Part shown: positions 37,291-62,046 of the stretch, one piece after another
How positions within the stretch are numbered: position 1 is the stretch's first letter
Layout of the letters: each line of letters starts with the position of its first letter
Source: an uncultured Anaerolineales bacterium
GTDB lineage: Bacteria > Chloroflexota > Anaerolineae > UBA2200
Length of the DNA stretch: 64,000 nt
Direction: 5' to 3'
Assembly (NCBI GenBank): GCA_964478075.1
Contig: CAYZGO010000007.1
Span: 22,975-86,974, forward strand
Translations under genes and position numbers: made by a program
Notes under the pieces: generated by a model
Database searches by the model: none
The model's input: the letters and a program-made list of their open reading frames with translations, nothing else
Told to the model about the DNA's origin: nothing

Positions 37291-37291
37291 C

Positions 37292-38905: not shown

Positions 38906-38942
38906 CGCATCATGGAATGCGAGGAGGCGAAGCGAGGAGTAA

Positions 38943-39848: not shown

Positions 39849-40091
39849 AAATAGCCCATACTTGACTGCCCCTGCAGCTATCAACAGGCTTGGAGTGCCG
39901 CCTTGACGGTTGACTGATCGCCAGAGTGTCATGCTTGCGTCTTGAGGAATTGTGTGAGACGCATACTTGAAATCGGTGGCAGTTGAAGAAATGCGCGTGA
40001 GCGGGGGCGCTGGCTTCCACCGGGCGGCCCATTTTTGCGGCAATAGGGAGGCCACGGAGACCTTGCAGGCATATCGGGAGGCAGCGCGCGC

Positions 40092-42127: not shown

Positions 42128-42153
42128 GATTGACTTGATGGAGGAGAAGCGCG

Positions 42154-44692: not shown

Positions 44693-45623
44693 CCTCTCCA
44701 TTGTCATCGTGAATTGGAACACGCGCGATCTGCTGGCGCAGTGCTTGCAGTCGGTGTACGAGACGGTGCGAGAACTGGAGTTCGAGGTATTCGTGGTGGA
44801 CAATGCTTCGAGCGATGGCAGTACGACGATGGTGAAGAAGGAGTTTCCGCAGGTCAAGCTAATCGAGAACAATGAGAATGTGGGATTTGCCAGAGCGAAC
44901 AACCAGGCAATTGCCCAGAGCCAGGGACGGTACGTCTTGCTCCTGAACAGCGATACGTTGGTGTTGCCAGGCGCAATTGACAGAGTCGTGGCGTTTATGG
45001 ATCAGCATTGGGAGGTAGGCGCAGCCGGTTGTGCGGTGTTGAATCCCGATGGCACGTTGCAACTTTCCCACAAAACCGCCTTTAGCATAGGCAACGAACT
45101 TGTGTATGCAACGTTCCTGGGTCGCTTTGTTGCACAACGGATGCCGTTTCCCAAAGACGTGCTTCAGCACGGGCAGAAGCCTTTCGTCTCTGAATACCTT
45201 GCTGTGGACGCGGTATCTGGTGCCTTCCTGCTGGTCCGCCGTGAGGTGATGGACGAAGTAGGGTTGTTGGACGAACGCTTTTTCATCTACTCCGAAGACG
45301 ATGATTGGTGTTTTCGCATCAGACAGGCGGGGTGGCAAATCTGCTACCTACTGAATGTTCGGATCATCCACTATGGTGGGCAAAGCACGCGTCAAGAAAG
45401 TGCCGAGATGTTCCTCCAACTCTACAAGAATCGGTTTCTGTTCTACCGGAAAAACTATGGGCAGCTCAAAGCGTCTTTCCTGAAATGGGTATTCATTGCT
45501 GAGGCGTGGGTAAAACTGGCTGCGTGGGCCGGAGTATATCTCTCAAGATTGGGCAGGCGTGCAGTAGCCAGGGAGAGGATTTGGGCCCTCTGGAGACTTG
45601 CAACCAAAGGCGTGTGGCTTTGA
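44685..45623 (+). CDS. GT2 glycosyltransferase (rhamnosyl/glycosyl transferase WbbL-like)
   Basis: MIDLSIVIVNWNTRDLLAQCLQS...VVDNASSDGS...DAVSGAFLLVRREV. Confidence 0.75.
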   Translation: MIDLSIVIVNWNTRDLLAQCLQSVYETVRELEFEVFVVDNASSDGSTTMVKKEFPQVKLIENNENVGFARANNQAIAQSQGRYVLLLNSDTLVLPGAIDRVVAFMDQHWEVGAAGCAVLNPDGTLQLSHKTAFSIGNELVYATFLGRFVAQRMPFPKDVLQHGQKPFVSEYLAVDAVSGAFLLVRREVMDEVGLLDERFFIYSEDDDWCFRIRQAGWQICYLLNVRIIHYGGQSTRQESAEMFLQLYKNRFLFYRKNYGQLKASFLKWVFIAEAWVKLAAWAGVYLSRLGRRAVARERIWALWRLATKGVWL

Positions 45624-45687
45624 CATCCCCAAGAGGAAGTGCCCGATATGGAACTTGTGCGCTGCGAATTATGCGGCAGTGATAAGC

Positions 45688-46701
45688 ATGACACGGAATG
45701 AGTGCAAGAAACTGGATCTAGCGGTTGTTATCGTTAACTGGAACACGGGCCAACTCCTACAGCAGTGTGTAGCCTCAATCTATGCCTACGCCCCCCATTG
45801 CAGTTTTGGCGTTTGGGTGGTTGACAATGGCTCCCACGATGGTAGTGCGGAGATGGTGAGGGCAAACTTCCCCAACGTGCATCTCGTCGTTAAGGAAGCC
45901 AATCTAGGGTTTACAAAAGCCTTCAATGATGTTCTTCGTCATACACGTGCCGAGTATGTTGTGTCGTTGCATCCCGATACCGAGGTAATGGCGGGTGCCT
46001 TGCAGGCCATGATCGACTATATGGAGAGTCATCCAGAAGTGGCGACAATAGGCGCCAAGCTGGTATATCCTGATGGAGAATGGAACAAATCGTGGTTCGA
46101 CTTCCCAACGTTAGCGACAGAGCTTTCTAAAGCTCTACTGCTGCACAGGTTGTTTCCTGCAAGCCAGACCCTAAACAGAACTGCTATGACGCCAGGAATT
46201 GCTTCTCAGCGTTGGGCTCACCATGTACTACAATCTGTCGGCTGGGTGTCTTCCGCGTGCCTACTCCTGCGCAGAGAGATCATTCAAACCATTGGTCTAC
46301 TCGATGAGCATTATCTCGTGTGGTGGGCGGATGTTGACTGGTGTTATCAAGTGCACAAAGCTGGCTGGTGCGTACACTACTTGCCTCAAGCCAAAGTCGT
46401 GCACTACGAGAGACGAAGTTTCCGAAGCGGCGCGCAGCATTTTGACCCCCATCTGGCCTATAAAGAGAAGGACTATCTACCAACAGAAATGACATGCCGG
46501 AATATCATTTATTTCTTTCGAAAGAACTATGGACGCCGGGAAGCGGTCTTGTTGCGGGCGATACTGGCCGTCGGATACTTTACTAGAGTGGTTGCCTGTT
46601 GCGCGGCGTTGGCGCTGTTGCCTCCGAGGAGAGTTGAAGCTAGAGAGAGACTCCTGAACTATTGGCAAGGGCTGAGAGTAGCGTTAGCTTATGGTGGATG
46701 A
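45688..46701 (+). CDS. GT2 glycosyltransferase, a tandem paralog of the previous gene
   Basis: LAVVIVNWNTGQLLQQCVASI...VVDNGSHDGS has the same architecture as the upstream GT2. Lower GC. Confidence 0.75.
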   Translation: MTRNECKKLDLAVVIVNWNTGQLLQQCVASIYAYAPHCSFGVWVVDNGSHDGSAEMVRANFPNVHLVVKEANLGFTKAFNDVLRHTRAEYVVSLHPDTEVMAGALQAMIDYMESHPEVATIGAKLVYPDGEWNKSWFDFPTLATELSKALLLHRLFPASQTLNRTAMTPGIASQRWAHHVLQSVGWVSSACLLLRREIIQTIGLLDEHYLVWWADVDWCYQVHKAGWCVHYLPQAKVVHYERRSFRSGAQHFDPHLAYKEKDYLPTEMTCRNIIYFFRKNYGRREAVLLRAILAVGYFTRVVACCAALALLPPRRVEARERLLNYWQGLRVALAYGG

Positions 46702-46827
46702 TGCGGGATTTCTCGTATTCCCCCCAGGCTGACCCAAAAATCGTGCCTACTACGTATTGTGTTCCTTGGCCGCTCAGCATGAGGTGACTTGGTCAGCTTC
46801 GCCCTACGAACGAAGGTGGTGTAATTC

Positions 46828-47640
46828 ATGAACCAGACTGTGCGGACGTTTCTCAAAGAGCGACTGCCTGCTGGCGTAATAGACCAGGTCAGATTGGCCA
46901 GAAACGCTTTGCGCTTACTTTGCTGGCAACTACGACCACCTGATAGCGGTGGCCCCGTCCTGCTGAGCCAGCCGGATCGTCAGTTTGATGTCCTTTTGTG
47001 GAGTTCTTGTGATCAGTTTGAGGTGATTGTACGACCCTTCGTCGAAGAATGCCGTTGGCCTTTGCCTGAGGTATACAATGGTTTCTTTGAAGCTATTGAC
47101 GCTGAATTCTACTATTGTGCGGTTCGAGCCTGGCGTCCCGAAACGATTATTGAGATCGGTTCAGGTTGGGCCACGCGATTTGCTGTACGTGCCCTGGCTA
47201 GAAACGGAGGGGGGCAGATTATCAGTATTGATCCTGAACCACGTCGTGTCTTACCAGCCCAAGTAACTCATATCCAATCAAGGGTGGAGGAAGTCGAGCT
47301 TGGTGCATTTGACCAACTTCAGGCAGGTGACATTCTCTTTATAGATTCCAGTCATAGCAGGCAAGAGGCCGAGTATCATGCAACGCACATTCTTGAGCGT
47401 CTCAAGCCAGGTGTCTTTGTTCATTATCATGACATTATGTATCCTTATCAACGTTGGTCTGATGAGGAAGAGGTGATACTGGATTTTTACCACCATCACC
47501 AGGCATCGTTTGAGGTCCTGACTGGTCTTGCTTTTGTTCGTCACATGTGTCCAGACCTCTGTCTATCGCTTGTGCCATCTTTCCGACGTATGGTGAATCG
47601 TGTGCCAGGCTCGCTTTGGGCGCGTAGGAAGACAGATTAG
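46828..47640 (+). CDS. CmcI/TylF-like class I methyltransferase-fold protein (sugar O-methyltransferase candidate)
   Basis: TIIEIGSGWATRFAVRA...ILFIDSSHSRQE resembles the CmcI-family motif (tIiEiG...GGS; lfiDsdH). Confidence 0.5.
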   Translation: MNQTVRTFLKERLPAGVIDQVRLARNALRLLCWQLRPPDSGGPVLLSQPDRQFDVLLWSSCDQFEVIVRPFVEECRWPLPEVYNGFFEAIDAEFYYCAVRAWRPETIIEIGSGWATRFAVRALARNGGGQIISIDPEPRRVLPAQVTHIQSRVEEVELGAFDQLQAGDILFIDSSHSRQEAEYHATHILERLKPGVFVHYHDIMYPYQRWSDEEEVILDFYHHHQASFEVLTGLAFVRHMCPDLCLSLVPSFRRMVNRVPGSLWARRKTD

Positions 47641-48861: not shown

Positions 48862-49815
48862 ATGGCAAAGACTGTGAACTGCAATCTCTGTGGCACGAAC
48901 GATGCTCGGGTCCTCTTTCGACCATCGCGGTCTCCAGGACCTGTTGTCAGGTGCCGGGACTGTGGCCTGGTCTATGTCAGCCCCCGCAAGAATACCAGGG
49001 CGATAATCTTTGAGGGGCCTGAGATTGGGAACTATGCCCCCAGAATGCTTATCAGCTCAGATCTTGGTGATCTGACAGGGTGTTGGGAAAGATCTGCGAT
49101 TGAGGAAGACGAGGCAGAACTGTCAGCTAAGGTAGTCAACGCTCATCGGGCTCTAGACCGCATTGAGCAACTGATGTCTCACAAGGGAACCATGCTCGAT
49201 CTCGGGTGCTTCTGTGGCACGTTTCTCCATGTGGCGGCGGAACGGGGTTGGCGCAGCTACGGGATAGAGCCCCTTGTCGGCCCGGCGATCTACGCGCGTG
49301 GAGAGTTCGGGCTCAACGTCATCACGGACACGCTGCGGGATGACAGCTTCCCGCCAGAGTTCTTCGATGTGGTAACCGCATTTCAGGTCTTTGAGCACCT
49401 TCCTGATCCACTGGGAGAGTTGACAAAGATTCGGCGCATTCTCAAGCCCGGGGGGCTGGTCGTGGTTGAGGTGCCGAACATTGACACCGTTTGGGTGAGA
49501 TTACTGGGCAAGTACCACAGACACTTTGTCCCGGATCACATATACTTCTTTTCGCCACAAACCCTGGAGGCGCTTCTGGCGAAGGCGGGATTCACAGTAA
49601 TGCAGATTCAAGCCTGGCCACGGACACTCAGTCTTCGGAAAGTTGCTCGCTGGACCGGGCGAGTTGGGGGTGTGCCATTCGGCAAAGTCGTTGCGACGGC
49701 CGTGCGTTGCCTTCACCTCCAAAACAGCATGATTACTGTGGATCTTGGAGACGTCATATGCGCCTTTGCTCGCAAGAGTGTAGTTCCTGAAGGAATGTCC
49801 TCGCTTGCCGGGTAA
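48862..49815 (+). CDS. Class I SAM-dependent methyltransferase with an N-terminal Cys4 zinc ribbon
   Basis: CNLCGT...CRDCGLVY zinc ribbon, motif I MLDLGCFCGTFLH and LKPGGLVVVEVPN. Confidence 0.7.
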   Translation: MAKTVNCNLCGTNDARVLFRPSRSPGPVVRCRDCGLVYVSPRKNTRAIIFEGPEIGNYAPRMLISSDLGDLTGCWERSAIEEDEAELSAKVVNAHRALDRIEQLMSHKGTMLDLGCFCGTFLHVAAERGWRSYGIEPLVGPAIYARGEFGLNVITDTLRDDSFPPEFFDVVTAFQVFEHLPDPLGELTKIRRILKPGGLVVVEVPNIDTVWVRLLGKYHRHFVPDHIYFFSPQTLEALLAKAGFTVMQIQAWPRTLSLRKVARWTGRVGGVPFGKVVATAVRCLHLQNSMITVDLGDVICAFARKSVVPEGMSSLAG

Positions 49816-49828
49816 CGGCCGGCGCTAA

Positions 49829-49912
49829 GTGGAGGAGAAGTACGATTGGCACACTGTGTACAGGCGGCTCGGCGTTGTCTACGATACGCTGATGAGGGCG
49901 AGTAGCATGTGA
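49829..49912 (+). pseudogene. Remnant of a GT4 glycosyltransferase 3' end
   Basis: EEKYDWHTVYRRLGVVYDTLMRASSM aligns to the C-termini of the GT4 genes (…VEQRYDWRTVYRKLDEVYANLAK at 48839 and …HHDWRDVTQRLEEVYQEV at 60577). Confidence 0.55.
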
Positions 49913-49954
49913 CTCTGTGCCTGATTCCGGCAGGTCTGACAGAAGGCCATATAT

Positions 49955-50266
49955 ATGCACAGCATCAAAGGTATACGAGGATCAATTCGCTGCCACTCTG
50001 CTTGGCTGTTCCCCACTGGTCTTGTGATTGGGGTACTGGTCCTGTATGGACTCTTTCCCACGACCAATTCCTACTACACCCGTGATCCAATTGACATAGC
50101 TATGCGTCTGAATCAGCACAACTGGACAGCGCTGTTCGACCCGCACCACGTATTGTATGGCCCCCTTGTCATCGCGGCCAACCGATTCGCTTTGGCTCTC
50201 GGGCTGGACAACCTGCTGCGTGTGAATCGGGCTATAAACGAGCCTGTGTCAATAGTCGAGGCATGA
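49955..50266 (+). pseudogene. N-terminal fragment paralogous to the following membrane protein (TM helix plus a Y-x-TRDPID motif)
   Basis: LVIGVLVLYGLFPTTNSYYTRDPIDIAMRL compared with the downstream LIFAAIFLLYIAFLTHGAYITRDPIDYAYAA. It is only 103 aa and ends at the start of the full-length paralog. Confidence 0.5.
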
Positions 50267-51969
50267 TGCGAGAGAAGTTGATTCAGAGCACGGCTTGGAT
50301 TCGGGGTGGGATTGAACGGCGGTTGTTGATGCCAACCCTGATCTTTGCTGCTATCTTCTTACTCTATATCGCCTTCCTCACCCATGGGGCTTACATCACC
50401 CGGGACCCCATCGATTATGCCTATGCTGCCGAAAGCTCCTTGCACTCAGCCCACTCGCCATTCCACTTGCTTTACCAGCCGGTAGGCCGCCTGTTCTATC
50501 TTTTGTGGGGTGTTCTTGGCTATCAAGGCGGGGCAATGTTGCCGATGCAGGTTCTGAATGCTTTGCTGGGGGCATTGGGGGTCGCGCTGTTCTATGTTGT
50601 GCTAAACAAGATCGTTGAAGATCGTTTTGTCGCGCTGGCGACGTCCCTTATGCTAGCCTTCAGTTACAGTTATTGGCGCTACTCCGTGGAAGCGATGCCC
50701 TATGTTCCCATGGTGCTGATTCTGGTGATTTCTCTTGCTCTAATGCTCAGGATATCTCGAATCAACTCCAAGCGAGAGGCTTGCCTCCTGGGGATGGCAA
50801 ACGGCGTGGCAGCTCTTTTCAATGTGGGTTGCGTTTTGCTGTTGCCCGCCGTTGCCGTTGCCATCTGGGCCAGGCGCAAAGGAGTCCGAGATCTCTGCCA
50901 ACGTCTTGCCCTGTATTCCCTGGGTTTGCTTCTGGTAGGCGTGGTTCCATACGTGATCTTTGGGGTCGCAATGCTAGGTATCCGCTCTCCACAAGACGTA
51001 TTGACACAATATGGTCGTGGCACGAGATATTGGCTTGGCGGAGTTAGCCCCCTGTTATCTCTTGTCGGATTAGCAAGCTTGTTTGTAGGTGAGAGCTTTG
51101 CGTTGAGGTTCTTCTCATCGAACCCGACCGCTCGTGCCGGGATTGTTTCCAGCCTTCCTTCTCTTCCCCTGGCCCCTCCAGAGGTCAGCAGGATTTCGAA
51201 CTTGCAGATTATCGCTATTCTTGGGTTCTTGGTGGTAGTGGCACTGGGTCTCCTGGCTTGTGTCGTACATGTAATCAGATTCAGCAAGAGGATTTGGCAC
51301 AATCAACGCCTCCTTCTGATGATATGTGTTTCATGGCTGGCACCGTTTGCGGTCTTTACGGTTTGGGTATCTCCCATGAAGTCACATCACTGGATTGCCA
51401 ACCTGATCCCAATTTGGACAGTGTTTGCCCTGGTCCTCAAAGACATCAAGGATAACGTGTCACATAGGTGGGCCGCTCGTGTGCACTTGCAGTGCCTTAC
51501 GGTGATGTTTGTCTTCTCGCTGTTCCTTGTTAATTTCTTTGGGTCGATCTTGCCTGATCATGATCCCAAAGCCAACTGGAACATGGAACTAGCTTTGCTC
51601 CTGAGCAACTACGTGGGTGAACAGGATTTGATCATGCCTCTCGAAGCCGGTGATTACAAGCATGCTCCTCCGTACATCCGGTACTATGTGCGCTGCGAGG
51701 TGATCCCCGTGCGAGCCTATCTCTTCGACGAAGGGTTGGGGCCCTATATCCGTGGACAAATCGAAGGCAGGCTGTCGGGGGGCGCGCATGTCTATGTTCT
51801 CTTTGACGCTTTTGATTCCGATCAGGGCTATCGCCAAGTATCCAGAGCAACGGGGCTGAGTCACGAGGAGATCCGACGAAGGATTGACGATCTCTTTACT
51901 GGTTATGTTCGCAGGATGGCATTGCAGCAGGATGGAGAGCCATTGCTGTACGAACTCATCCCACAGTGA
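50263..51969 (+). CDS. Polytopic membrane protein, probably a GT-C-like glycosyltransferase/polymerase
   Basis: 568 aa with at least 11 TM helices, a first-loop motif ITRDPIDYAYAAE and a C-terminal soluble domain. Low GC. Confidence 0.5.
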   Translation: MMREKLIQSTAWIRGGIERRLLMPTLIFAAIFLLYIAFLTHGAYITRDPIDYAYAAESSLHSAHSPFHLLYQPVGRLFYLLWGVLGYQGGAMLPMQVLNALLGALGVALFYVVLNKIVEDRFVALATSLMLAFSYSYWRYSVEAMPYVPMVLILVISLALMLRISRINSKREACLLGMANGVAALFNVGCVLLLPAVAVAIWARRKGVRDLCQRLALYSLGLLLVGVVPYVIFGVAMLGIRSPQDVLTQYGRGTRYWLGGVSPLLSLVGLASLFVGESFALRFFSSNPTARAGIVSSLPSLPLAPPEVSRISNLQIIAILGFLVVVALGLLACVVHVIRFSKRIWHNQRLLLMICVSWLAPFAVFTVWVSPMKSHHWIANLIPIWTVFALVLKDIKDNVSHRWAARVHLQCLTVMFVFSLFLVNFFGSILPDHDPKANWNMELALLLSNYVGEQDLIMPLEAGDYKHAPPYIRYYVRCEVIPVRAYLFDEGLGPYIRGQIEGRLSGGAHVYVLFDAFDSDQGYRQVSRATGLSHEEIRRRIDDLFTGYVRRMALQQDGEPLLYELIPQ

Positions 51970-52078
51970 AGGGGGCAGTGTGATCAACGTCGCAGTAGTC
52001 GGCTGTGGCCATTGGATCCTTAAGCGGCTCGGTCACCCTTCGGTCATTTGTGCGCTCAGGGAACAACGGAGGCAGTGA

Positions 52079-53356
52079 GTGAAGCGTACCATAGACGATT
52101 TAGCGATTTTGGGCGGCACGCCCGCTTTCCAAGAGGAGCTGCATGTCGGCCGTCCCAACATCGGCGACCGCGAACGCCTGCTGGAGCGGATCAATGACAT
52201 CCTTGATCGGCGTTGGTTGACCAACAATGGCGTCTACGTCCAAGAGTTTGAGCGCAAGATCGCTGACATGCTCGGCGTCAAGCATTGCATTGCCATGTGC
52301 AACGGCACTGTGGCTTTGGAGATTGCCATTCGCGCTGCCGGACTTGCTGGCGAGGTTATCGTTCCTTCGTTCACCTTTGTCGCTACGGCTCACGCCCTGC
52401 AGTGGCAAGAGATCACCCCTGTCTTTTGCGACATAGACGCCAAGACGTACAATCTGGATCCCTGCCAGGTGGAGCACATGATTACGCCGCGCACCACGGG
52501 CATCATCGGCGTGCACGTGTTCGGCCGGCCTTGCGACGTCGATGCATTGGCGCACGTTGCCCGGCGCCACAACCTGAAGCTGTTGTTCGACGCCGCCCAT
52601 GCCTTCGCTTGCTCGCACAAAGGACAGATGATCGGCGGATTTGGTGATGCTGAAGTGTTCAGCTTTCATGCGACCAAGTTCTTCAACACGTTTGAAGGCG
52701 GAGCTGTCGTAACGAACGACGATGACTTGGCGACGAAGGTGCGGTTGATGAAGAACTTTGGGTTCTGCGGCTATGACAATGTCATCCACATCGGCACTAA
52801 TGGGAAGATGAGCGAAGTGTCGGCCGCTATGGGACTGACCTCACTCGAGAGCTTGGACGAGTTTGTAGCTGCCAATCATCGCAACTATAAGCAGTATCAA
52901 CGTCAACTCGCTGGCATTCCGGGTGTTCATATGGCACCCTACGATGAGAGTGAGCGGTGCAATTATCAGTACATCGTTGTGGAGATTGATGACACAGTCA
53001 CCAAGGTGAGCCGGGATGAGTTACTCGAAGTCCTGCACGCCGAGAACGTCCTGGCCCGCCGGTATTTCTATCCTGGCTGCCATCAGATGGAGCCGTATCG
53101 CTCTTGTTTCCCCCACGCTGGCCTACTGCTGCCCAATACGGAGCGCCTTGTTACACGAGTGATGAGTTTGCCTACGGGTACAGCAGTTGGGCAGGACGAG
53201 GTTAGTCAGATTTGCCAGATTCTGACGCTCGTTCTGGAGAACGGTCCGGCGGTGCATCAACGGATGAACATGTTAGCGCAGGCTGAGCCCTTGAGGCAGC
53301 CCATCTCGTTTGGAGCTTGCGACAATCCGGCACTTGGGCCGGAAACAGGTATCTGA
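52079..53356 (+). CDS. DegT/DnrJ/EryC1/StrS family PLP-dependent sugar aminotransferase
   Basis: PLP-lysine region SFHATKFFNTFEGGAVV and the N-terminal motif of the family. GTG start with RBS GGAGG. Confidence 0.85.
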   Translation: MKRTIDDLAILGGTPAFQEELHVGRPNIGDRERLLERINDILDRRWLTNNGVYVQEFERKIADMLGVKHCIAMCNGTVALEIAIRAAGLAGEVIVPSFTFVATAHALQWQEITPVFCDIDAKTYNLDPCQVEHMITPRTTGIIGVHVFGRPCDVDALAHVARRHNLKLLFDAAHAFACSHKGQMIGGFGDAEVFSFHATKFFNTFEGGAVVTNDDDLATKVRLMKNFGFCGYDNVIHIGTNGKMSEVSAAMGLTSLESLDEFVAANHRNYKQYQRQLAGIPGVHMAPYDESERCNYQYIVVEIDDTVTKVSRDELLEVLHAENVLARRYFYPGCHQMEPYRSCFPHAGLLLPNTERLVTRVMSLPTGTAVGQDEVSQICQILTLVLENGPAVHQRMNMLAQAEPLRQPISFGACDNPALGPETGI

Positions 53357-53374
53357 GGCCGCGGAGGCGAGTCC

Positions 53375-54031
53375 GTGACTGCCACACGAAAACTGGTCAT
53401 CTGGGGCGCTTCAGGCCATGCTTTGGTTGTTGCAGACATCGTTCGTTTGCGGGCAGAGTACGAGCTTGTTGGGTTCTTGGATGATGTGAATCCTGATCGC
53501 ACCAGCGCCGCATTCTGCGGAAGCCGGATCCTTGGGGGCCAAGAACAGCTGGTTCATCTTCGGGAACAGGGAGTTGATTACATAATCTTCGGATTCGGCG
53601 ACTGTAGTGCAAGGTTAGAGTTATCCAAACTGGTGCGAGAGTTGGGGTTCTCACTGGCGACAGCCATTCATCCCAAGGCAACTGTGGCAGCTGATGTATC
53701 AGTCGGGGCAGGGACTGTGATCATGGCAGGGAGTGTTGTCAATCCTGGGGCACAGATCGGAGAGAATGTTATCATCAACACTTGTGCAAGCGTTGATCAT
53801 GAGTGTGTTATAGAGGACGGGGTTCACATTGGTCCAGGTGTTCGGTTGGGGGGGCACGTCAGGGTGGGACGAGCAGCTTGGATAGGGATTGGGGTGACGA
53901 TTAAGGATGCCGTGCACATAGGTCCAGGTTCAGTGATAGGTGCTGGTGCAGTTGTGTTGAGTGATATCCCTGGTGGCGTTGTGGCCCATGGAACGCCAGC
54001 CAGAGTAGTGCGAGAAATCTCGTGCGAATGA
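53375..54031 (+). CDS. NeuD/PglD/WbpD-family sugar N-acetyltransferase (hexapeptide)
   Basis: The N-terminal domain KLVIWGASGHALVVADIVRL...YELVGFLDD is typical of PglD/NeuD. A C-terminal left-handed beta-helix follows. Confidence 0.75.
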   Translation: MTATRKLVIWGASGHALVVADIVRLRAEYELVGFLDDVNPDRTSAAFCGSRILGGQEQLVHLREQGVDYIIFGFGDCSARLELSKLVRELGFSLATAIHPKATVAADVSVGAGTVIMAGSVVNPGAQIGENVIINTCASVDHECVIEDGVHIGPGVRLGGHVRVGRAAWIGIGVTIKDAVHIGPGSVIGAGAVVLSDIPGGVVAHGTPARVVREISCE

Positions 54032-54055
54032 CAACCGTTGATTGGGGGAGCATCA

Positions 54056-55063
54056 ATGACCACAGCCTCTGATTCAGTGGTAGACTATTCAATTGTTATC
54101 CCTGTCTACTTCAATGAGGGGACCTTGACAGAAACCATGTCGTCTATCAAGGACGATGTCCTTGCCCGCAATCCCAATCTTCGTTGCGAGGTCATTTTCG
54201 TTGACGATGGCTCGGGTGATGGCTCGTTGGAGGAGCTGCTCCGACTTTACGAGGAGGATCCGGGGATCGTAAAGGTTATCAAGCTAACGCGAAACTTTGG
54301 GCAGGTTAATGCCCTACTGGCTGGCTTCTCTCACGCCAAGGGAGAGTGTGCTATAGCAATGTCAGCAGACGGCCAAGATCCTGCAGTTCTGATCAATGAC
54401 ATGCTCAGGGCGTATTTTGAGGAACAATGCGAGATTGTGGTCTGCGCCCGGCAGGGGCGTGACGAGTCATGGTATAGAGTTCTGACTTCAAGACTGTTCT
54501 ATGCACTGGTTAGGAAGCTGAGCTTCCCTAATATGCCTGCGGGAGGGTTTGATTTTGTCCTGCTTGGGCGACGGGCCCTGGACGTTCTGCTGAGCAGTCG
54601 AGAGGCGTATCCCTTTCTTCAGGGGCAGATCTTGTGGACTGGGTTCAAAACGAAATTCCTTAAGTATCACAGACTGGAGCGAAAAGCTGGTCAGTCGCGC
54701 TGGACTTTTGGCAAGAAGATCACTTATTTGATTGATGGTGTAATGAGCTACTCATTTCTTCCCATACGCTTGATGTCAGCAATGGGAATCCTGTTTGCGC
54801 TATTAGGACTTCTCTACGCTGTAATCATATTCGTCCTCAAAGTAGCTGGGGGCATACCAATAGAGGGCTGGGCACCGCTGATGATTGTAGTGCTCATAAT
54901 GGGGGGCATTCAGATGCTCATGTTGGGTGTCATTGGCGAATATCAGTGGCGGACGCTGGGCGAAGCGCGCCGCAGACCGCGCTACATCATTGATGAAGTG
55001 TTCGGCGAGGACGCACAGGAGCCGGCGGAACGTGATGAAGGTTCAACAAGCGACAGCGTGTAG
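54056..55063 (+). CDS. GT2 polyprenyl-phosphate sugar synthase-like glycosyltransferase (GtrB/ArnC-like) with C-terminal TM helices
   Basis: YSIVIPVYFNEGTL...FVDDGSGDGS...MSADGQDP, then two TM helices. The in-frame ATG at 54056 with a GGGGGAG RBS is preferred over the TTG at 54038. Confidence 0.75.
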   Translation: MTTASDSVVDYSIVIPVYFNEGTLTETMSSIKDDVLARNPNLRCEVIFVDDGSGDGSLEELLRLYEEDPGIVKVIKLTRNFGQVNALLAGFSHAKGECAIAMSADGQDPAVLINDMLRAYFEEQCEIVVCARQGRDESWYRVLTSRLFYALVRKLSFPNMPAGGFDFVLLGRRALDVLLSSREAYPFLQGQILWTGFKTKFLKYHRLERKAGQSRWTFGKKITYLIDGVMSYSFLPIRLMSAMGILFALLGLLYAVIIFVLKVAGGIPIEGWAPLMIVVLIMGGIQMLMLGVIGEYQWRTLGEARRRPRYIIDEVFGEDAQEPAERDEGSTSDSV

Positions 55064-55188: not shown

Positions 55189-57549
55189 GTGAAACGCAAC
55201 ACAGGCAGGCTCCTCGACTTGATCATCAAACACCAGCTTGTGCTGCTTGCCGCCGCTGTCCCCGTGCTGGTCTTGCCGCGTTCCTACCTCTGGAAGTGGC
55301 AGCAGGGCCTTACAACCTATGCGCCCCTGGGGGACGAGGCGGCAGCGGGCCTGAGTCCCCTGACCTGGGCTGCGTTGGGGCTCGTCGCCCTGCCCTGGCT
55401 GCTGCGCCTGGTCCGCCAGCGCCGGTTCAGTCAGCGCACCCCCCTCGACTGGCCCATCGCGCTGACCCTGCTCAGTGCAGCCATCGGGATCTGGCCTTCG
55501 GTGGACCGCCTCTTCAGCGTGGAGCGCTTCCTGGGGCTGGTGGCAGGTGTGGCGCTGTGCTATGGCCTGGTCAACAGCATCAACACCGAAAGGCGACTGC
55601 AGGGGATGGTGGCGCTGTTCCTGGCCGGCGGGGTGGCGCTGGCCCTGCTGGGCTTCGCCCTGACCGACTGGACGGCGGTGAACTCACCGCTGGCGGCTGT
55701 CCTGGCACCGGTCTATGCGATGCTGGCCGGGCTGCCCAAACTGGGGGCCAAGCGACTCAACGACAGCCTCGTGGCCAGCACGCTGATCATCTTTGTGCCG
55801 CTGGCGCTGTGCCTGCTCCTGGCGCCCGTCCGGCGGCGCATCAAGCCGTTCCTGGCGCTGGTGGCTCTGCTGGCCGCTGGCTACACCGTTTTGGCTTGGT
55901 CCCGCGGCGAGCTGCTGGCGCTGGGACTGACGCTGCTGCTCCTGCCCGCCTTAGTCAGGCGCCGCTGGCGCATCCTGCTGCTGGCCATCGCTGGGGCAGC
56001 CGTTGTCGCTCTCGTCATCCTGTTGGCTGTGCAACCCGCTAACCTTTCGGTTAGCAGCCTGCTAGCCCAACTGCGTCCCAGTCGTTGGCAGGTCTGGACG
56101 CGGGCCCTGCTCATGATGCGCGACTATCCCTTGACCGGCATCGGGTTGGACACCTTCCGCATCATCGCCCAGAACGAGTATCCTTACTTCAACTATGCCT
56201 TTAACCAGAGCGAGCATGCCCACAACGTCTTCCTGCAGGCGGGCGTGGATCAGGGAATCCTGGGCCTTATCGCCCTCCTTTGGCTGGTCGTCGCCTTCTT
56301 TCGCATGGTTGCTCGGATCTCAAGTCCCAGGCTCGAGACGCTGGGCCAGTCGGACGATCAGTCATCAGTTATCAGCTATCAGTTATTAGTCATTGGCCTC
56401 TCCGCCGGCTTTACCGCCTTTCTCATCAGCGGCCTGTTCGATCTGCTGGGCGGTCCCCGCGCAGGCCTGGTCCTGTGGGCGCTGTTGGGGTTAGCGGCTG
56501 CAGCGTGCAAACTGTGCCCTGCGCCTGCCGTGAGCCCGTCGAAGGCCATCACGGCTCACGCTTCACGTTTCACGTTTCACGTCTCACGCCTGACGTCTCA
56601 CGCTTCACTCCTAGCGGCAGTCATCGTCCTGGTGCTCGTCGTCGCATTCCTGACCTATCCCATCGTCGCCAGTGCCTACTACGACAATCTCGGGTGCGTG
56701 GAGCGGGGGCGGGGCTGGCTGTGGCGGGAAGCGAGTGAAGAGCAGCGGCGCGCTTGTGCGCAGTCGGCGCTGGCCCACTTCCAGCAGGCGCTGGCGCTGT
56801 GGCCGGGCAACGCCGCTGCCCAACGCCACCTGGGAACCCTGTGCTACCACGCCCAACACCCGGAGGAAGCGGTCGTCCGGCTGCTGGGGATGCCTGGCGC
56901 TGAATACCATCCGGGCTTCCTGGCCTTCTACGATGAGGTGGCAAAGGCCGTGGGTGCCGAAGCTGCTTTGCCTCACCTGGAGCAGGCTGTGGCTCTGGCC
57001 CCCTACGATTTTCTGGCCCATTTGTTCCTGGCCGAGGCTTATCGGGCTGATGGGCGGGTGGCGGAGGCGGTGGATCAGTACGCGGCGGCCGGCATCGAAC
57101 TCGACAGGGTGCTCTGGGATGCGGGGCGAAGGTGCAGGGGCGATGCTTCAACCGAGGAGGCCATGGTGCACTACGAGATCGCCGCGCGCCTCTTTCCTGC
57201 GTCGCCCCTGCCTGGCTACGGCCGGGGAGACTGCCTGCGGGGGCGCGGCTCATACGACGAAGCGGTGGCCGCCTATCAGCAGGCCATCGCTCTGGACAAT
57301 GACAACTCCCTCCGCAAGCACCAGACCCTGCGCTGGATATGCAGCTACCAGCAGGAGTGGGATCGCGCCATCGCCGCCTACGAGCGGGCGGTCCGGCTGG
57401 ACCCCAATAATGCGTCCTACCAGGTGAGGCTGGGCGATCTGTACCGGGATGCCGGCCGGCCTGGTGACGCCAGGGCTGCCTACCAAGCTGCTCTGACCTT
57501 GCGTCCAGATGACGAGTACATCAAGCAGCAGCTTGCTCAGTTGCCGTGA
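55189..57549 (+). CDS. O-antigen ligase/Wzy-like membrane domain fused to a C-terminal TPR-repeat domain
   Basis: 786 aa. N-terminal 12 TM helices with a ligase-like loop (GIGLDTFRIIAQNEY...HAHNVFLQAGVDQG), and a C-terminal region of about 320 aa of TPR repeats (AYQQAIALDNDN, AYERAVRLDPNN, AYQAALTLRPDD). Confidence 0.7.
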   Translation: MKRNTGRLLDLIIKHQLVLLAAAVPVLVLPRSYLWKWQQGLTTYAPLGDEAAAGLSPLTWAALGLVALPWLLRLVRQRRFSQRTPLDWPIALTLLSAAIGIWPSVDRLFSVERFLGLVAGVALCYGLVNSINTERRLQGMVALFLAGGVALALLGFALTDWTAVNSPLAAVLAPVYAMLAGLPKLGAKRLNDSLVASTLIIFVPLALCLLLAPVRRRIKPFLALVALLAAGYTVLAWSRGELLALGLTLLLLPALVRRRWRILLLAIAGAAVVALVILLAVQPANLSVSSLLAQLRPSRWQVWTRALLMMRDYPLTGIGLDTFRIIAQNEYPYFNYAFNQSEHAHNVFLQAGVDQGILGLIALLWLVVAFFRMVARISSPRLETLGQSDDQSSVISYQLLVIGLSAGFTAFLISGLFDLLGGPRAGLVLWALLGLAAAACKLCPAPAVSPSKAITAHASRFTFHVSRLTSHASLLAAVIVLVLVVAFLTYPIVASAYYDNLGCVERGRGWLWREASEEQRRACAQSALAHFQQALALWPGNAAAQRHLGTLCYHAQHPEEAVVRLLGMPGAEYHPGFLAFYDEVAKAVGAEAALPHLEQAVALAPYDFLAHLFLAEAYRADGRVAEAVDQYAAAGIELDRVLWDAGRRCRGDASTEEAMVHYEIAARLFPASPLPGYGRGDCLRGRGSYDEAVAAYQQAIALDNDNSLRKHQTLRWICSYQQEWDRAIAAYERAVRLDPNNASYQVRLGDLYRDAGRPGDARAAYQAALTLRPDDEYIKQQLAQLP

Positions 57550-57649
57550 GAGCCGGAGCTGTTCCCCTCTCCCGAGCTTGGGAGAGGGGCCAGGGGTGAG
57601 GGCCACAGCGGCAAACTCCCCCCAGGTATGCAGCAACCCAAAAACCATC

Positions 57650-58021
57650 ATGCGTGTGCTATTCATCGTCCCTTACGTCCCGAACCTGATACGGGTGCGG
57701 CCCTACAACCTGATCCGGCACCTGGCGGCCCGCGGGCACGAGGTCACGGTTCTGACCTTGTGGTCCAGCGAAGAGGAGCGCGCCGACGGCGAGGCGTTGA
57801 AGCAGCACTGCCACAGCGTCGTCGCCCTGCCGCTGCCCCGCTGGCGCTCCCTGTGGAACTGCCGGCCGGCTTTGCGGACACACGTGGGGCTTCGGGCGAT
57901 CTATTGCCACGCACCAGAGCTTGCCGCCCTGCTCGGGCTCTTTCGCCCACGTACTTCTCCGTGCGCTTCGAGCCCCTTGACTCAGAGAGAGCAAAGGACT
58001 GAGTACCATGGTGATTGCTAA
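57650..58021 (+). pseudogene. Truncated 5' duplicate of the GT4 gene at 59291
   Basis: The first 214 nt (57650-57863) are about 93% identical to 59291-59504 (MRVLFIVPYVPNLIRVRPYNLIRHLAARGHEVTVLTLWSSEEERAD...). The sequence then diverges and runs into the next gene. Confidence 0.65.
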
Positions 58022-59294
58022 GCTTATCTCCTCTATCGCATGTCTAGCAGCCCGCAGACAAGTAATAGTTCTGTTTTGCGCAGCAGCTGTGATCAGGTTG
58101 GCCTATGTAGCTACGCTCCCAAGCAGTCTGCGCTTTGATGAGGCCTACTACCAGGATATGGCAGATCACTTGTTGGCCGGAGACGGTTTTACCTTTTCAT
58201 TCAGTGCGTGGCACACAGGTCTCCCCTGTCGACCCACCTCAGTTCAGGAACCACTGTTTCCAATGCTCCTAGCCGGGGTGTACCATGTATTTGGAATCCA
58301 CAATTATCTTGCGGCTCGCGTCGTTCAATGCATCATCAGCTCGTTTACAGTGATATGTGTCTATGCCATCAGTCTCTTGGCCTTTGATCGACCCAAAGCG
58401 CTACTAGCAGGCTCGTTCGCGGCAATTTACCCGCCTTTGGTATTCTTCAACGGCTACCTTATGACTGAGACGCTCTATATCGCGTTTCTGGCGGGCATGA
58501 TCCTATTTGCGGCTCTGACTGCCAACTCTCAATCAAGGTTGTCTGCTTGCGCCACGGGAGTGCTGTTCGGCCTGGCTTGCTTGACGCGGGGTCTTATCCA
58601 AGCCTTCTTGCCCGGGTTGTTGGTCTGGCTGTGGCTTGCGCTACGTTGCCAGTGGCGTGTTCGGATAGGTACATGCTTACTTGTCATGATAGGGGGCGTC
58701 TTGGCCATCGCCCCTTGGACAATCAGGAATTATGCGGTGCACAAGGCCTTCATTCCCGTCACAACCAAGGGGGGCTGGGTATTGTATTTCTATACCTATC
58801 CCGCTCCTAATCTGAATTTCAATGATAGATGGGACGAGATCCGTATCCCTAGTATGCCCTCTTCTTACACAGAGATACAGCGCAACCAGGAATTCACTCG
58901 CTTGGCAATGAAAAACATCAGAAACAATCCGAGACTGATGGTGCGCTTTGCTGTGGCCAAGCTGGCTGACTTCTGGAATCCGCTCCTGAAGGGTTGGCAT
59001 CCCGTCTTGTCCCTTCTAAACATATGTACGTTCGGCATCGCCACGGCCTTTGCCGCCTCTCGTCTGATACCTGCCTTGCGCCTGCGTCAAGTAGCGCCGA
59101 TTCCACTGCTTCTGTGGTTGATAATTGGGTACTATGCAGCGATGGCCACGCTGTTTACGGGAGGTGGAAAGGCACGTCTCCCTGTTGAGCCCTTCTTGAT
59201 CGTACTTGCAAGTGATGGGGTAGTCGCTTTGCTGCGGAAGAGTGGTTGGCGTTGCAACAGCTTGTCTCGGCATGCCGGGGTGGGCTCGCAATGA
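58008..59294 (+). CDS. GT-C fold membrane glycosyltransferase (GT39/ArnT-like)
   Basis: 428 aa and multi-TM. The first loop LRFDEAYYQDMADHL carries the DE motif of the family. Low GC. Confidence 0.65.
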   Translation: MVIAKLISSIACLAARRQVIVLFCAAAVIRLAYVATLPSSLRFDEAYYQDMADHLLAGDGFTFSFSAWHTGLPCRPTSVQEPLFPMLLAGVYHVFGIHNYLAARVVQCIISSFTVICVYAISLLAFDRPKALLAGSFAAIYPPLVFFNGYLMTETLYIAFLAGMILFAALTANSQSRLSACATGVLFGLACLTRGLIQAFLPGLLVWLWLALRCQWRVRIGTCLLVMIGGVLAIAPWTIRNYAVHKAFIPVTTKGGWVLYFYTYPAPNLNFNDRWDEIRIPSMPSSYTEIQRNQEFTRLAMKNIRNNPRLMVRFAVAKLADFWNPLLKGWHPVLSLLNICTFGIATAFAASRLIPALRLRQVAPIPLLLWLIIGYYAAMATLFTGGGKARLPVEPFLIVLASDGVVALLRKSGWRCNSLSRHAGVGSQ

Positions 59295-60577
59295 GGATAC
59301 TATTCGTCGTCCCTTACGTCCCTAACCTGATACGGGTGCGGCCCTACAACCTGATCCGGCACCTGGCGGCGCGCGGCCACGAGGTCACGGTTCTGACCTT
59401 GTGGTCCAGCGAAGAGGAGCGCGCGGATGCCGAGGCGTTGAAGCAGCACTGCCACAGCGTCGTCGCCTTGCCGCTGCCCCGCTGGCGCTCCCTGTGGAAC
59501 TGCCTGCGAGCACTGCCGACGCCTGTACCACTGCAGGCGGTCTACTGTTGGCAGCCAGCCCTGGCCGAGGAGATCGCTCGTCGTGTATCGCCCGTGCGGC
59601 CGACGCACAGGCAAACCGCAGATTGCATTTCCCCGTCAGGCACGCGTGATAAGCGATACGACGTCGTCCACGTGGAGCACCTGCGCGGCGCCCGCTACGG
59701 CCTTGCAGCCCGCAATGCGCAATCGGCCATCCCCGTCGTCTGGGACTCTGTGGACTGCATCAGCCTCCTGTTCGAGCAAACTCTGCAGAGAGGCCCCAGC
59801 CTGGGCAGCCGCTTGAAAGCCTGGCTGGATTTGGAGAGGACGAGGAGATATGAGGGCTGGCTCGTGAGGCAGTTTGACCGGGTGCTGGTCACCTCACAGG
59901 CAGACCGTCGCGCCCTGCAAGACCTGGCTTTGTGTTCCCTGCAGCCTGCAGCCTTGAGCCTTGAATCTGGGACCATCACCGTCCTCGCCAACGGCGTTGA
60001 CCTCGACCACTTCAAGCCGCTGGACGTCCCCCGGGACCCTGCCACTCTCATTCTGACCGGCAAGATGAGCTATCACGCCAACGTGGCTGCGGCCCTCTAC
60101 CTTGTGCGCGAGATCATGCCTCTGATATGGGCCAGACAGCCGGATGTCAAGCTCCACATCGTCGGCAAGGATCCAGCTAAGGAGATACGGGCAGTGGGCA
60201 GCGATCCACGGGTAACGGTAACGGGCTATGTCCCCGATATGCGGCCCTATCTGGCCCAGGCCACCGTCGCCGTCTGCCCGGTCCTTTACAGCGCGGGCAT
60301 CCAGAACAAGGTGCTGGAGGCGATGGCCATGGGCACACCGGTGGTTGCTACGCCGCAATCCTGTGCCGCCCTGGAGGTTGTCCATGGCGAGAACGTCCTC
60401 ATCGCGGGAGAGCCGGAGGCGTTTGCCCAGCGTGTGCTGGAGCTGCTGGATGATGAGGGGGTAAGGGAGACAATGGGGAGGAATGGCAGGAGGTACGTGG
60501 AGGAGCACCACGACTGGCGAGACGTGACACAGAGGCTAGAGGAGGTTTATCAAGAAGTGATCGGGAGGAGGCAGTGA
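59291..60577 (+). CDS. GT4 (group 1) glycosyltransferase
   Basis: GT-B C-terminal motifs ILTGKMSYHANVAA and VLEAMAMGTPVVAT. ATGA overlap with the upstream gene. Confidence 0.8.
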   Translation: MRILFVVPYVPNLIRVRPYNLIRHLAARGHEVTVLTLWSSEEERADAEALKQHCHSVVALPLPRWRSLWNCLRALPTPVPLQAVYCWQPALAEEIARRVSPVRPTHRQTADCISPSGTRDKRYDVVHVEHLRGARYGLAARNAQSAIPVVWDSVDCISLLFEQTLQRGPSLGSRLKAWLDLERTRRYEGWLVRQFDRVLVTSQADRRALQDLALCSLQPAALSLESGTITVLANGVDLDHFKPLDVPRDPATLILTGKMSYHANVAAALYLVREIMPLIWARQPDVKLHIVGKDPAKEIRAVGSDPRVTVTGYVPDMRPYLAQATVAVCPVLYSAGIQNKVLEAMAMGTPVVATPQSCAALEVVHGENVLIAGEPEAFAQRVLELLDDEGVRETMGRNGRRYVEEHHDWRDVTQRLEEVYQEVIGRRQ

Positions 60578-62046
60578 ACGCCGTAGCTGAATCATCCCCA
60601 CCGAAGACCAGGCCGAGCATATCCCGCAGAGCCCCAAGCCGCCTCCTTGTCGGCACCCTGCTCCTCGGCGACTCTGCAGCGATTGGAGCTGCCTTTGCTG
60701 TGGCTTACGCCGTGCGCTTCAAGACCAGTTTGCCGGTCTTCCAAGCGGTTGTGCCGTCCCTGCAGTTCTATTTCAGTTTGATTCTCATCTTGATCCCTTT
60801 CTGGCTTCTCATCTTCGCCGTATCCGGCCTGTACGACGAGCGCAACCTGTTGGGCGGAACTGGTGAATACGCCAGAGCCTTCAATGCCTGCACTGCGGCA
60901 ATGATGCTCATCATCACGGCCGGTTTCCTGGAGCCGACGTTTGTCATCGCCAGGGGCTGGCTGCTCCTCTCCTGGGGTCTCACATTTCTCTTCGTGGTCA
61001 CGACTCGTTTCTTCCTGCGGCGCGCATTCTACCGCCTGCGGAAGCGAGGTTACTTCCTCTATCGCACCCTGATCATCGGAGCCAATGAGGAGGGGAAGGC
61101 CCTGGCGGAGCAACTGCAGCACTGGCCCGCTTCTGGCCTGCAGTTGGTCGGCTTCGTGGATGACGCCCTGCGGCCAGGGACCGAGGTGCTGAACGGGCTG
61201 CGGGTGCTGGGGCCTACGGAGGAGCTGCAGGCGCTGGTTCAAGAGCACGGGGTGCGCGAGTTGGTCGTCGCTACCACGGCCCTGCCTCGCCGCACGCTGC
61301 TGGGCATATTCCAGCAGTATGGTACCTCGCCCCTCGTCAACATCCGCCTCTCCTCCGGCCTGTTTGAGATCATTACCACCGGCGTGCAGGTCAAGGAGAT
61401 AGCCAACGTTCCCCTTGTGAGCGTCAACCGGCTGCGCCTGACGGGGATCGAGGTGGCGCTGAAAACGATGTTGAACTATGCTATTGTCCTGCCAGGTCTG
61501 ATCGCCATCTCTCCCCTCCTATTGCTCCTCGCCGTGGCGGTCAAGTTGGATTCGCGCGGTCCGGTCCTCCACCGGCGTCGGGTGATGGGGATGGGTGGAC
61601 GGGAGTTTGACGCCTTCAAGTTCCGTACCATGCACATGGACGCCCATGCGATTCTGGAGGCCTACCCGGAGTTGAAGGCAGAGTTGCAGAGCAACTACAA
61701 GCTGAAGGACGATCCCCGGGTGACCCGGGTGGGGCGCTTTCTGCGTCGCTGGAGTCTGGACGAGCTGCCTCAGCTTTTCAACGTGCTCAAGCGGGACATG
61801 AACCTGGTAGGGCCGCGGATGATCTCGCCGCCGGAGGTCAAGGAATACGGCAAGTGGGGGATGAACCTGCTGACGCTGCGGCCGGGGCTCACCGGACTGT
61901 GGCAGGTATCGGGCCGCTCCGACGTGACTTATGAGGAGCGGGTGCGGCTTGACATGCAGTACATTCGCAATTATAGTATCTGGCTGGATCTGCACATTCT
62001 GATTCAGACGATCCCTGCGGTGCTGCACGGTAGGGGGGCACGCTAA
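60574..62046 (+). CDS. Polyprenyl-phosphate hexose-1-phosphate transferase (WbaP/CpsE-like initiating sugar transferase)
   Basis: 490 aa. N-terminal TM helices, a Rossmann-like linker (LIIGANEEG) and the C-terminal bacterial sugar transferase domain (KFRTMHMDA...RVTRVGRFLRRWSLDELPQLFNVLKRDMNLVGPR). Confidence 0.85.
   Translation: MNAVAESSPPKTRPSISRRAPSRLLVGTLLLGDSAAIGAAFAVAYAVRFKTSLPVFQAVVPSLQFYFSLILILIPFWLLIFAVSGLYDERNLLGGTGEYARAFNACTAAMMLIITAGFLEPTFVIARGWLLLSWGLTFLFVVTTRFFLRRAFYRLRKRGYFLYRTLIIGANEEGKALAEQLQHWPASGLQLVGFVDDALRPGTEVLNGLRVLGPTEELQALVQEHGVRELVVATTALPRRTLLGIFQQYGTSPLVNIRLSSGLFEIITTGVQVKEIANVPLVSVNRLRLTGIEVALKTMLNYAIVLPGLIAISPLLLLLAVAVKLDSRGPVLHRRRVMGMGGREFDAFKFRTMHMDAHAILEAYPELKAELQSNYKLKDDPRVTRVGRFLRRWSLDELPQLFNVLKRDMNLVGPRMISPPEVKEYGKWGMNLLTLRPGLTGLWQVSGRSDVTYEERVRLDMQYIRNYSIWLDLHILIQTIPAVLHGRGAR

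Follow-up and report, generated by a model that had tools for sequence, protein, structure and literature searches.

We analyzed a 64,000-nucleotide stretch of DNA from an uncultured Anaerolineae (Chloroflexota) bacterium (contig CAYZGO010000007.1, positions 22,975 to 86,974; here called the window, whose first nucleotide is position 1), in which a gene for a predicted membrane glycosyltransferase of the GT-C fold lies between two copies of the 5′ end of a family 4 glycosyltransferase (GT4) gene. The region lies close to the end of a gene cluster for polysaccharide biosynthesis that spans at least 30 kb, with all genes on the + strand. This cluster encodes GT2 and GT4 transferases, methyltransferases, a Polysacc_synt flippase, two Wzy_C proteins, and the DegT and PglD sugar-modification enzymes, and its downstream part contains Bac_transf, Wzz, and heptose-nucleotide genes; it is a Wzx/Wzy-type surface-polysaccharide gene cluster. 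The GT-C gene is followed by an intact GT4 gene and preceded by a truncated open reading frame (ORF; here, the stub) that begins with the other copy of the GT4 5′ end (the head). The features of the region are collected in Table 1.

The two head copies, 57650 to 57863 and 59291 to 59504, aligned without gaps and differed at 12 of 214 positions (94.4% identity; 96.1% when 57659 to 57863 was compared to 59300 to 59504). Identity fell to 55% over the next 60 nt and to 22% over the 60 nt upstream, and nowhere else in this part of the window was a long direct repeat present. The original prediction had described near-identical copies of about 93% identity, repeated directly on either side of the GT-C gene, and the ungapped alignment supports that description; the repeats are also in frame. 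The mismatches were unevenly distributed: the first 16 nt contained 5 and the other 198 nt contained 7 (Fisher P = 7 × 10−4), and 6 of the 7 in this 198-nt core were synonymous. At 3 of the 5 mismatched positions in the first 16 nt, both outgroup loci (L090 and L158) placed the derived state in the downstream copy; a fourth was placed there by L158 only. The first 7 residues of the stub (MRVLFIV) are also those of L090 and L158, its closest relatives, and represent the ancestral-type start for the clade. The first 16 nt of the intact GT4 gene probably came in together with the GT-C gene, to which they are coupled through an ATGA overlap. Counted by codon, synonymous and nonsynonymous differences between the copies stood at 7:3, too few sites to separate models. 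Exceptional conservation of the head across species was considered and rejected: identity between the window gene and that of L090 was 88% within the head and 78% outside it, with other segments reaching 0.92 to 0.93. Nucleotide conservation of the head instead appears to reflect ordinary protein-level constraint together with the bias in GC content at third codon positions (GC3).

The stub matched only PF13439 and PF13579 in Pfam, within profile positions 4 to 88 (PF13439, 31.9 bits against a cutoff of 28.5, covering positions 9 to 88 of 170 only), and the same search returned no C-terminal catalytic domain (Glycos_transf_1 or Glyco_trans_1_4). Because the catalytic domain and most of the N-terminal domain are absent, the stub is a GT4 pseudogene that retains just a portion of the N-terminal Rossmann domain and is predicted to have no enzymatic role, bearing out the truncated pseudogene originally proposed. 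Its ORF overlaps the start of the GT-C gene (ATG at 58008) by 14 nt, with the TAA codon 11 nt beyond the GT-C start codon, and it may at most serve as a translated leader ahead of the GT-C gene. The fragment had also been described as a copy of the GT4 5′ end. This is correct up to 57863; beyond that position, the stub continues with approximately 26 codons of a much more distant GT4 (the tail).

In this tail, 11 of 21 residues were identical to the resident GT4 in a fixed register (P of approximately 4 × 10−8), and its best matches were the equivalent positions in orthologs of the family. This agreement in register between the tail and the family alignment points to homologous exchange rather than random joining. 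At the nucleotide level, the tail was 55 to 56% identical to the resident GT4, L090, and L158, compared to 66 to 77% among those three. Relative to the resident GT4, the stub head was therefore 96% identical and the tail 56% (52% at the amino acid level). Among 91 homologs, those with tails as diverged as that of the stub had heads at most 69% identical, making the 96% stub head an outlier (z = 6.5). In a four-way comparison, the tail was an outgroup to the window GT4, L090, and L158, and the head was nearest to the window GT4. The stub is thus a mosaic whose head and tail have different histories, and because these histories differ, simple duplication followed by decay is excluded. As sources of the tail, we considered the upstream paralogous GT4 of related loci and other genes of the window, and neither matched in the comparison. 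A protein search for a full-length GT4 with this tail recovered nothing but the stub and short N-terminal GT4 proteins. The latter have the look of broken or incomplete genes and not of scars, since L171, the only one checked on a long contig, has several frameshift-split genes. On that contig (ENA contig_7935; 252 kb), the GT4 and Bac_transf genes are split into several short ORFs; such splits are typical of frameshift errors in long-read assembly and inflate the count of database proteins that resemble truncated GT4s.

The GT-C gene encodes a protein of 428 amino acids with about 10 hydrophobic segments and without a large soluble domain. It matched PF13231 (PMT_2) with 42.1 bits against a gathering cutoff of 26.1. 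An aspartate in the first loop (D44; FDEAYY) was invariant among 23 relatives. A sequence search found no match in the PDB; its AlphaFold model was confident (predicted local distance difference test score [pLDDT] of 90.7), and the top 30 PDB fold matches were all GT-C enzymes (STT3, PglB, AglB, ArnT, and PMT). The window protein thus shares with ArnT, PMT, and STT3/PglB/AglB the modeled fold and the first-loop aspartate, and differs from them in lacking the large soluble domain. Based on full-length alignment with relatives, invariant D44, and the confident GT-C fold, the gene appears to be intact and to encode a membrane glycosyltransferase of the GT-C fold (PMT_2; GT39-GT83-like). It has its own Shine-Dalgarno-like AAGGA 9 nt upstream of its ATG, and its TGA overlaps the ATG of the intact GT4 gene as ATGA.

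Composition and identity set this gene apart from its surroundings. Its GC content was 0.528 and its GC3 0.585, compared to a GC3 of 0.77 to 0.85 for the four neighboring features, and the low GC was restricted to 58000 to 59290. The GC3 offset between the GT-C gene and its GT4 partner was −0.186 in the window versus +0.017 ± 0.039 in 30 related loci (z = −5.2). The window GT-C was 23 to 29% identical to every one of the GT-Cs in those 30 syntenic loci, whereas these shared 38 to 62% identity among themselves (mean, 49%), in step with their GT4 partners; the GT4s of the same loci were 39 to 54% identical to the window GT4. The closest relatives of the window GT-C, at 46% identity, form its own subfamily and occur in other contexts (four contexts were viewed, all different). 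Judged by identity, then, the window GT-C is not the ortholog of the usual partner GT-C. Its putative foreign origin is supported by two independent lines, namely, this nonorthology and the GC3 offset. Both the lower GC and the foreign character attributed to the gene by the original prediction were thereby upheld.

The intact GT4 gene matched PF13579 (55.5 bits), PF13439 (52.2 bits), and PF13692 (116 bits) and is presumably functional. It is translationally coupled to the GT-C gene upstream and to the Bac_transf gene downstream. In NCBIfam, the intact GT4 and the stub both scored highest against TIGR03087 (stp1), which describes GT4s associated with PEP-CTERM/XrtA systems. The intact GT4 resembles these proteins, yet at 250.1 bits it scored below the curated cutoff of 316.65 and is not a member by NCBI's rule. 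Many of its homologs are named PslH in annotation from the Joint Genome Institute (JGI). We found 5,940 homologs at E ≤ 1 × 10−20, overwhelmingly from Anaerolineae (Chloroflexota) metagenome-assembled genomes (MAGs), the closest at 70% identity; the N-terminal 70 residues of the family were highly conserved.

To place the arrangement in its family, 165 related loci were fetched from genomes and metagenomes. A GT-C gene lay directly upstream of the orthologous GT4 in approximately 23 of these and directly downstream in approximately 9, often with the same 4-nt ATGA overlap and with Bac_transf next. ATGA is the native junction type between GT-C and GT4 in the orthologous loci L040, L107, L143, and L147, and a GT-C beside a GT4, then Bac_transf, recurred in Anaerolineae and other phyla. 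The GT-C slot beside the GT4 is therefore part of the usual architecture of the family. Because this slot was already usual, the event is best described as a nonorthologous displacement in a preexisting slot and not as a new kind of insertion; comparison of syntenic loci thus corrects the earlier proposal that the event brought a foreign GT-C into the operon, since an existing slot was replaced or filled and the kind of gene was not new there. No locus closer than 54% to the window was present among the matches listed by the genome scan; among those listed by the metagenome scan, which like the former do not include the identical JGI contigs described below, none was closer than 56% over its full length, and one partial match reached 72%. 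The closest GT4 (P0002; 70%) was on a contig with only 134 bp upstream. A 12-nt match upstream of the L090 GT4 was considered as a remnant of an older GT-C 3′ end and dismissed as chance.

Several further observations were made on the related loci. A module of distant GT4 paralog, GT-C, GT4, and Bac_transf recurred across Anaerolineae (L006, L011, L014, L024, L033, L040, L059, and others), and Acidobacteriota and Caldilineales loci (L016, L022, L039, L054, and L057) had the order GT4, GT4, GT-C, Bac_transf. Codivergence of GT-C with GT4 suggests that the two form a functional pair. In close GT4 homologs (P0213 to P0217 and P0221), a hypervariable linker after residue ∼95 read SAIRNPQSAIRNP, which back-translates to (TCCGCAA)n 7-nt repeats, and several of these homologs were called as truncated proteins of 100 to 200 amino acids. 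The short forms could be due to frameshifting at the 7-nt repeats, either as real phase variation or as assembly error. In the linker of the window GT4 (59710 to 59740), only a degenerate trace of the 7-nt repeat was seen.

Table 1. Features of the GT-C/GT4 region, in window coordinates
Feature	Position	Strand	Remarks
Fusion gene, Wzy_C (O-antigen polymerase/ligase-like) plus TPR	55189..57549	+	Pfam PF04932 and TPR families; GC3 0.79, host-like
Hairpin	57564..57589	+	Perfect 10-bp stem, 6-nt loop
Intergenic leader, 60 nt, native	57590..57649	+	22% identity to 59231-59290; no second copy found
GT4 stub ORF, 123 codons	57650..58021	+	N-terminal GT4 Pfam domains only
Upstream GT4 head copy (codons 1-71)	57650..57863	+	94.4% identity to 59291-59504; starts MRVLFIV
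Stub tail, codons 72-97 of a distant same-family GT4	57864..57940	+	In frame and register with the head; peptide RPALRTHVGLRAIYCHAPELAALL...
Nonhomologous spacer, with the truncation/joining point of the stub somewhere inside	57941..58007	+	No similarity elsewhere; carries AAGGA (57994-57998)
GT-C gene	58008..59294	+	PF13231 PMT_2
Intact GT4	59291..60577	+	Pfam N- and C-terminal GT4 domains
First 16 nt of intact GT4	59291..59306	+	5/16 mismatches, 69% identity to stub start
Core of downstream head copy	59307..59504	+	96.5% identity to 57666-57863
Polyprenyl glycosylphosphotransferase (Bac_transf, TIGR03025)	60574..62046	+	Conserved right-hand neighbor in related loci

Since the sequence is metagenome derived, we asked whether the arrangement is real or an artefact of assembly, i.e., a chimera or collapse of two strains sharing the 214-bp segment. 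Other assemblies do break in or near the region: the Logan contig L001 (57834 to 59353) is bounded by the repeats, the NCBI contig L005 (45189 to 59040) ends within the GT-C gene, and L002 starts there (59109 onward). However, the contigs compared by BLAST were all 100% identical to the window, seven independent contigs showed this full identity at all the junctions that they span, and every junction is contained in at least one independent contig from a different sample: L005 extends across the upstream genes and the stub and on into the GT-C gene, and the remainder is covered by L001 and by the JGI contig L003 (58519 to 62209). (L005 was placed by gene coordinates, and its identity rests on exact protein matches plus a 100% match of 57550 to 58007.) Identical sequence was found in the NCBI MAG GCA_034430235.1 and in several JGI and Logan assemblies, and the same stub ORF is recorded on a 118,886-bp NCBI contig and on two JGI contigs. 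Moreover, the junction between stub and GT-C lies in unique sequence, and the two repeat copies should be resolvable by assemblers because their diagnostic mismatches are no more than 48 nt apart. The ends of L001 are, judging from their 30-nt offsets, exactly the outcome of a k = 31 graph at these repeats. An artefact, which the original prediction had named as the finding that would undo it, is thus extremely improbable. Four independent assemblies, including L004 (59206 onward), start or end contigs at different points in the 3′ half of this gene that lie beyond the repeats (58519, 59040, 59109, and 59206, all in the GT-C gene); this could reflect a coverage dip or strain variation.

Upstream of the stub, a hairpin, CCCCTCTCCC-GAGCTT-GGGAGAGGGG (−22.3 kcal/mol; unique in the window), begins 14 nt beyond the stop codon of the Wzy_C/TPR gene and lies 60 nt ahead of the repeat. 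A hairpin with a perfect 10-bp stem had been placed at the upstream junction; the stem is indeed perfect, but its coordinates were off by one and it is not at the junction. Four of the five other perfect hairpins in the window (≥9 bp) are at or near annotated gene ends. The hairpin is followed by CCAGGGGTGAGG and was absent from the terminator scan output, and by the T-run criterion it is not an intrinsic (Rho-independent) terminator. It is probably a 3′-end or terminator-like stem-loop of the preceding Wzy_C/TPR gene, without a T-run. A sigma-70 promoter scan found no + strand site in the leader (57590 to 57649), and an Rfam scan of 57000 to 60000 gave nothing meaningful.

Very probably, these features constitute a recombination scar with a foreign GT-C gene. 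The foreign block would extend from 57864 to 59306 (∼1.44 kb) inside the former 5′ end of the resident GT4 gene, and it consists, in order, of donor GT4 codons 72 to 97, the spacer with AAGGA, the GT-C gene, and donor GT4 codons 1 to 6. It is flanked by the 198-bp in-frame direct repeat of the resident head. The upstream head has retained the original leader and start codon and then runs into the block; the downstream head continues into the intact GT4. The block looks like a circular permutation of the common donor order, in which the GT-C gene precedes the GT4 5′ end, and for this reason a circularized donor fragment is the most economical source. We lean toward the reading that a circularly permuted foreign block was integrated through the conserved GT4 head. 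Under this reading, a donor fragment comprising the GT-C gene and the GT4 5′ end would have circularized, and the circle would have integrated by a single homologous exchange within the head, or by gap repair copied from the chromosome; such an integration would be of the Campbell type ("ends-in") and would duplicate the homology region. Gap repair or mismatch correction from the chromosome would be required because both repeat copies are mostly resident type. Alternatively, switching of the template during replication at these two points would give the same product, and passage through a circular intermediate in particular is a tentative proposal that falls just short of an even chance. The repeat, the mosaic stub, the nonorthology and foreign composition of the GT-C, and the reality of the junctions are shown by the data, whereas we infer in which direction transfer took place, that a circular intermediate existed, and the phenotype considered below.

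In Campbell-type integration, circular DNA enters by a single homologous exchange, leaving an insert flanked by direct repeats of the homology region. The window insert is likewise flanked by direct repeats of the homology region, its edges lie exactly where donor and recipient contexts diverge, and the block reads as a circularly permuted version of the presumed donor order. Unlike such an integrant, the insert carries no plasmid or vector backbone, no donor circle has been observed, and the two repeat copies both mostly resemble the recipient. Homologous recombination is the best account of its origin, in agreement with the insertion or duplication footprint originally proposed, although simple duplication does not account for it. 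The word "cassette," which had been used for the inserted gene, does not apply in the mobile-element sense. Pfam lists for 33476 to 45623 and ∼45189 to 70000 (∼24 kb upstream and 10 kb downstream) contained no integrase or transposase, no flanking or terminal inverted repeats were found around the GT-C block, and the locus had no close plasmid or phage relative. The locus thus does not qualify as a mobile gene cassette borne by an integron, insertion sequence, or transposon; its flanking repeat is a gene segment of 198 to 214 bp.

Several points weigh against integration of a permuted block. No donor was found: among the loci viewed, none had a GT-C of the window type beside a GT4 carrying the tail of the stub. 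Nor was there a close relative with the preinsertion arrangement, the nearest GT4 loci being on contigs too short upstream. A reciprocal single crossover needs a donor head that is highly similar and a donor tail that is very different; because of this combination, gap repair, mismatch correction, or template switching must be invoked. The stub tail is GC rich (GC3 of ∼0.73 by hand count) versus 0.585 for the GT-C gene, a difference that is not significant for a sample of 26 codons. Finally, the 6 of 7 synonymous differences in the core could equally fit two slightly different functional head alleles that predate the event.

The main rival explanation, which we consider unlikely, is that the stub is what remains of a displaced resident GT4 allele (head plus divergent tail) that once followed directly after the Wzy_C/TPR gene. 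An incoming segment from a relative, with GT-C, GT4, and Bac_transf onward, would have used downstream homology as its anchor and been joined illegitimately within the old GT4, the head of which would later have been homogenized with the new one by gene conversion. The native-looking leader and clade-typical start of the stub agree with this explanation, as do its head and tail, both GC rich like the host genes. There are precedents, too: leftovers of displaced genes have been amply described for O-antigen clusters (PMC3715488), and homology-facilitated illegitimate recombination was put forward for module displacement (PMC5361080). However, the heads expected from such tails are at most 69% identical, too low for efficient RecA-mediated gene conversion up to 96%. 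In addition, two steps are required instead of one, and a diverged first 16 nt of the downstream copy beside a 96.5% core is not predicted. A tandem of GT4, GT-C, and GT4 might instead be old, with the first GT4 decayed by deletion, a vertically inherited but fast-evolving GT-C, and heads kept alike by gene conversion. A GT4 gene is indeed present upstream of the GT-C in many related loci, and the conserved N-terminal 70 residues noted above are consistent with similar heads. The upstream GT4 of relatives, however, is a distant paralog (23 to 32%), and the stub tail matches the downstream-type family instead; moreover, the GT-C is an outlier in both identity and GC3, whereas in the 30 other loci it codiverges with the GT4 and is matched in GC3. 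We therefore regard an old tandem as very improbable.

The repeats are direct, in frame from the ATG, and 96% identical over 198 bp, and hence they might constitute a programmed or selected switch. RecA-mediated deletion between them would precisely remove the GT-C gene and restore an intact GT4 behind its native leader, resulting in glycan heterogeneity. Against this idea, a deletion-product GT4 is nowhere on record, the 90%-identity cluster of the GT4 having a single member among ∼15 billion proteins; all recovered contigs had the same arrangement, and there was no sign of selection on the stub. Such a switch is quite improbable. A more general form of the idea is doubtful to the same degree: the conserved first 70 codons of the GT4 family would be a recurrent recombination anchor and the in-frame repeats a working toggle, in which the GT-C gene is excised as a circle and reintegration reverses the change. 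As an anchor, the GT4 head may lie where a conserved right arm (GT4, Bac_transf, and Wzz) meets a freely exchangeable left arm in Anaerolineae polysaccharide loci.

The rest of the cluster was also heterogeneous. GC3 mosaicism is usual for glycan loci that recombine. Between 27141 and 62046, low-GC3 blocks (0.45 to 0.67; 35006 to 39848, 44652 to 47640, and 48862 to 55063) alternated with host-like blocks (0.73 to 0.85), and this mosaic suggests several further exchange events. A second Wzy_C protein and a second, larger GT-C-like protein (TMEM260_N/PMT_2; 567 to 568 amino acids) are encoded at 43352 to 44692 and 50263 to 51969. Among 80 genome loci screened (L006 to L085), the Wzy_C/TPR gene that precedes the hairpin had no homolog above 60 bits. 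The linker that joins its Wzy_C and TPR parts contains two heptanucleotide tandem arrays, ATCAGTT × 4.9 and TCACGTY × 7.6 (56357 to 56390 and 56549 to 56612), which give a 7-residue periodic peptide (HASRFTF/HVSRLTS); as 7-nt units within a coding region, they could shift the reading frame by slippage. Elsewhere in the window, an intergenic element with units of 84 to 100 nt and 86 to 98% identity is present as a single copy near 7 kb and as a tandem pair near 11.4 kb (6930 to 7139 and 11298 to 11699) and includes the short tandem repeat AAGACCCAGGGG.

Glycan loci that are mosaic and contain gene remnants are familiar, and the general view of them is unchanged by this case. The scar is ordinary for glycan loci that swap parts; it is also real and well resolved, and it is located at the border of the conserved and variable parts of its cluster. 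Gene remnants and same-slot replacement are classic in O-antigen clusters, where remnants such as those of wzy in Salmonella groups B1 and D1 mark O-antigen or capsule recombination junctions (PMC3715488). The window resembles those cases in having a nonfunctional piece of a glycan gene, a cluster that is mosaic in divergence and GC content, and genes of the same role in the same slot (PMC3715488). In contrast to them, its remnant is a mosaic 5′ stub that forms an in-frame direct repeat with an intact gene, and the host is a member of the Anaerolineae rather than an enterobacterium. A similar logic is found in the orphan arrays of type VI secretion system effector-immunity, Rhs, and contact-dependent inhibition (CDI) loci, where variable modules are displaced behind a conserved anchor (PMC5361080). 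Here too, a conserved segment anchors a foreign module and pieces of the previous occupant remain; however, those arrays pile up downstream 3′ fragments, whereas the window has a single upstream 5′ stub and one visible event.

For annotation, the ORF at 57650 to 58021 should be recorded as a pseudogene and not as a small glycosyltransferase, and the window GT-C should not inherit a function from the syntenic GT-Cs of related genomes. The locus is a cleanly resolved example, from a little-studied uncultured phylum, of how the enzyme set of a surface-polysaccharide locus changes, and because the scar preserves both exchange points, a specific mechanistic inference is possible. If the repeats did act as a toggle, glycan types would be heritable but switchable. 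For the cell itself, the exchange would mean making a glycan with a different lipid-linked-sugar transferase or polymerase-like GT-C and, as a result, a changed surface polysaccharide.

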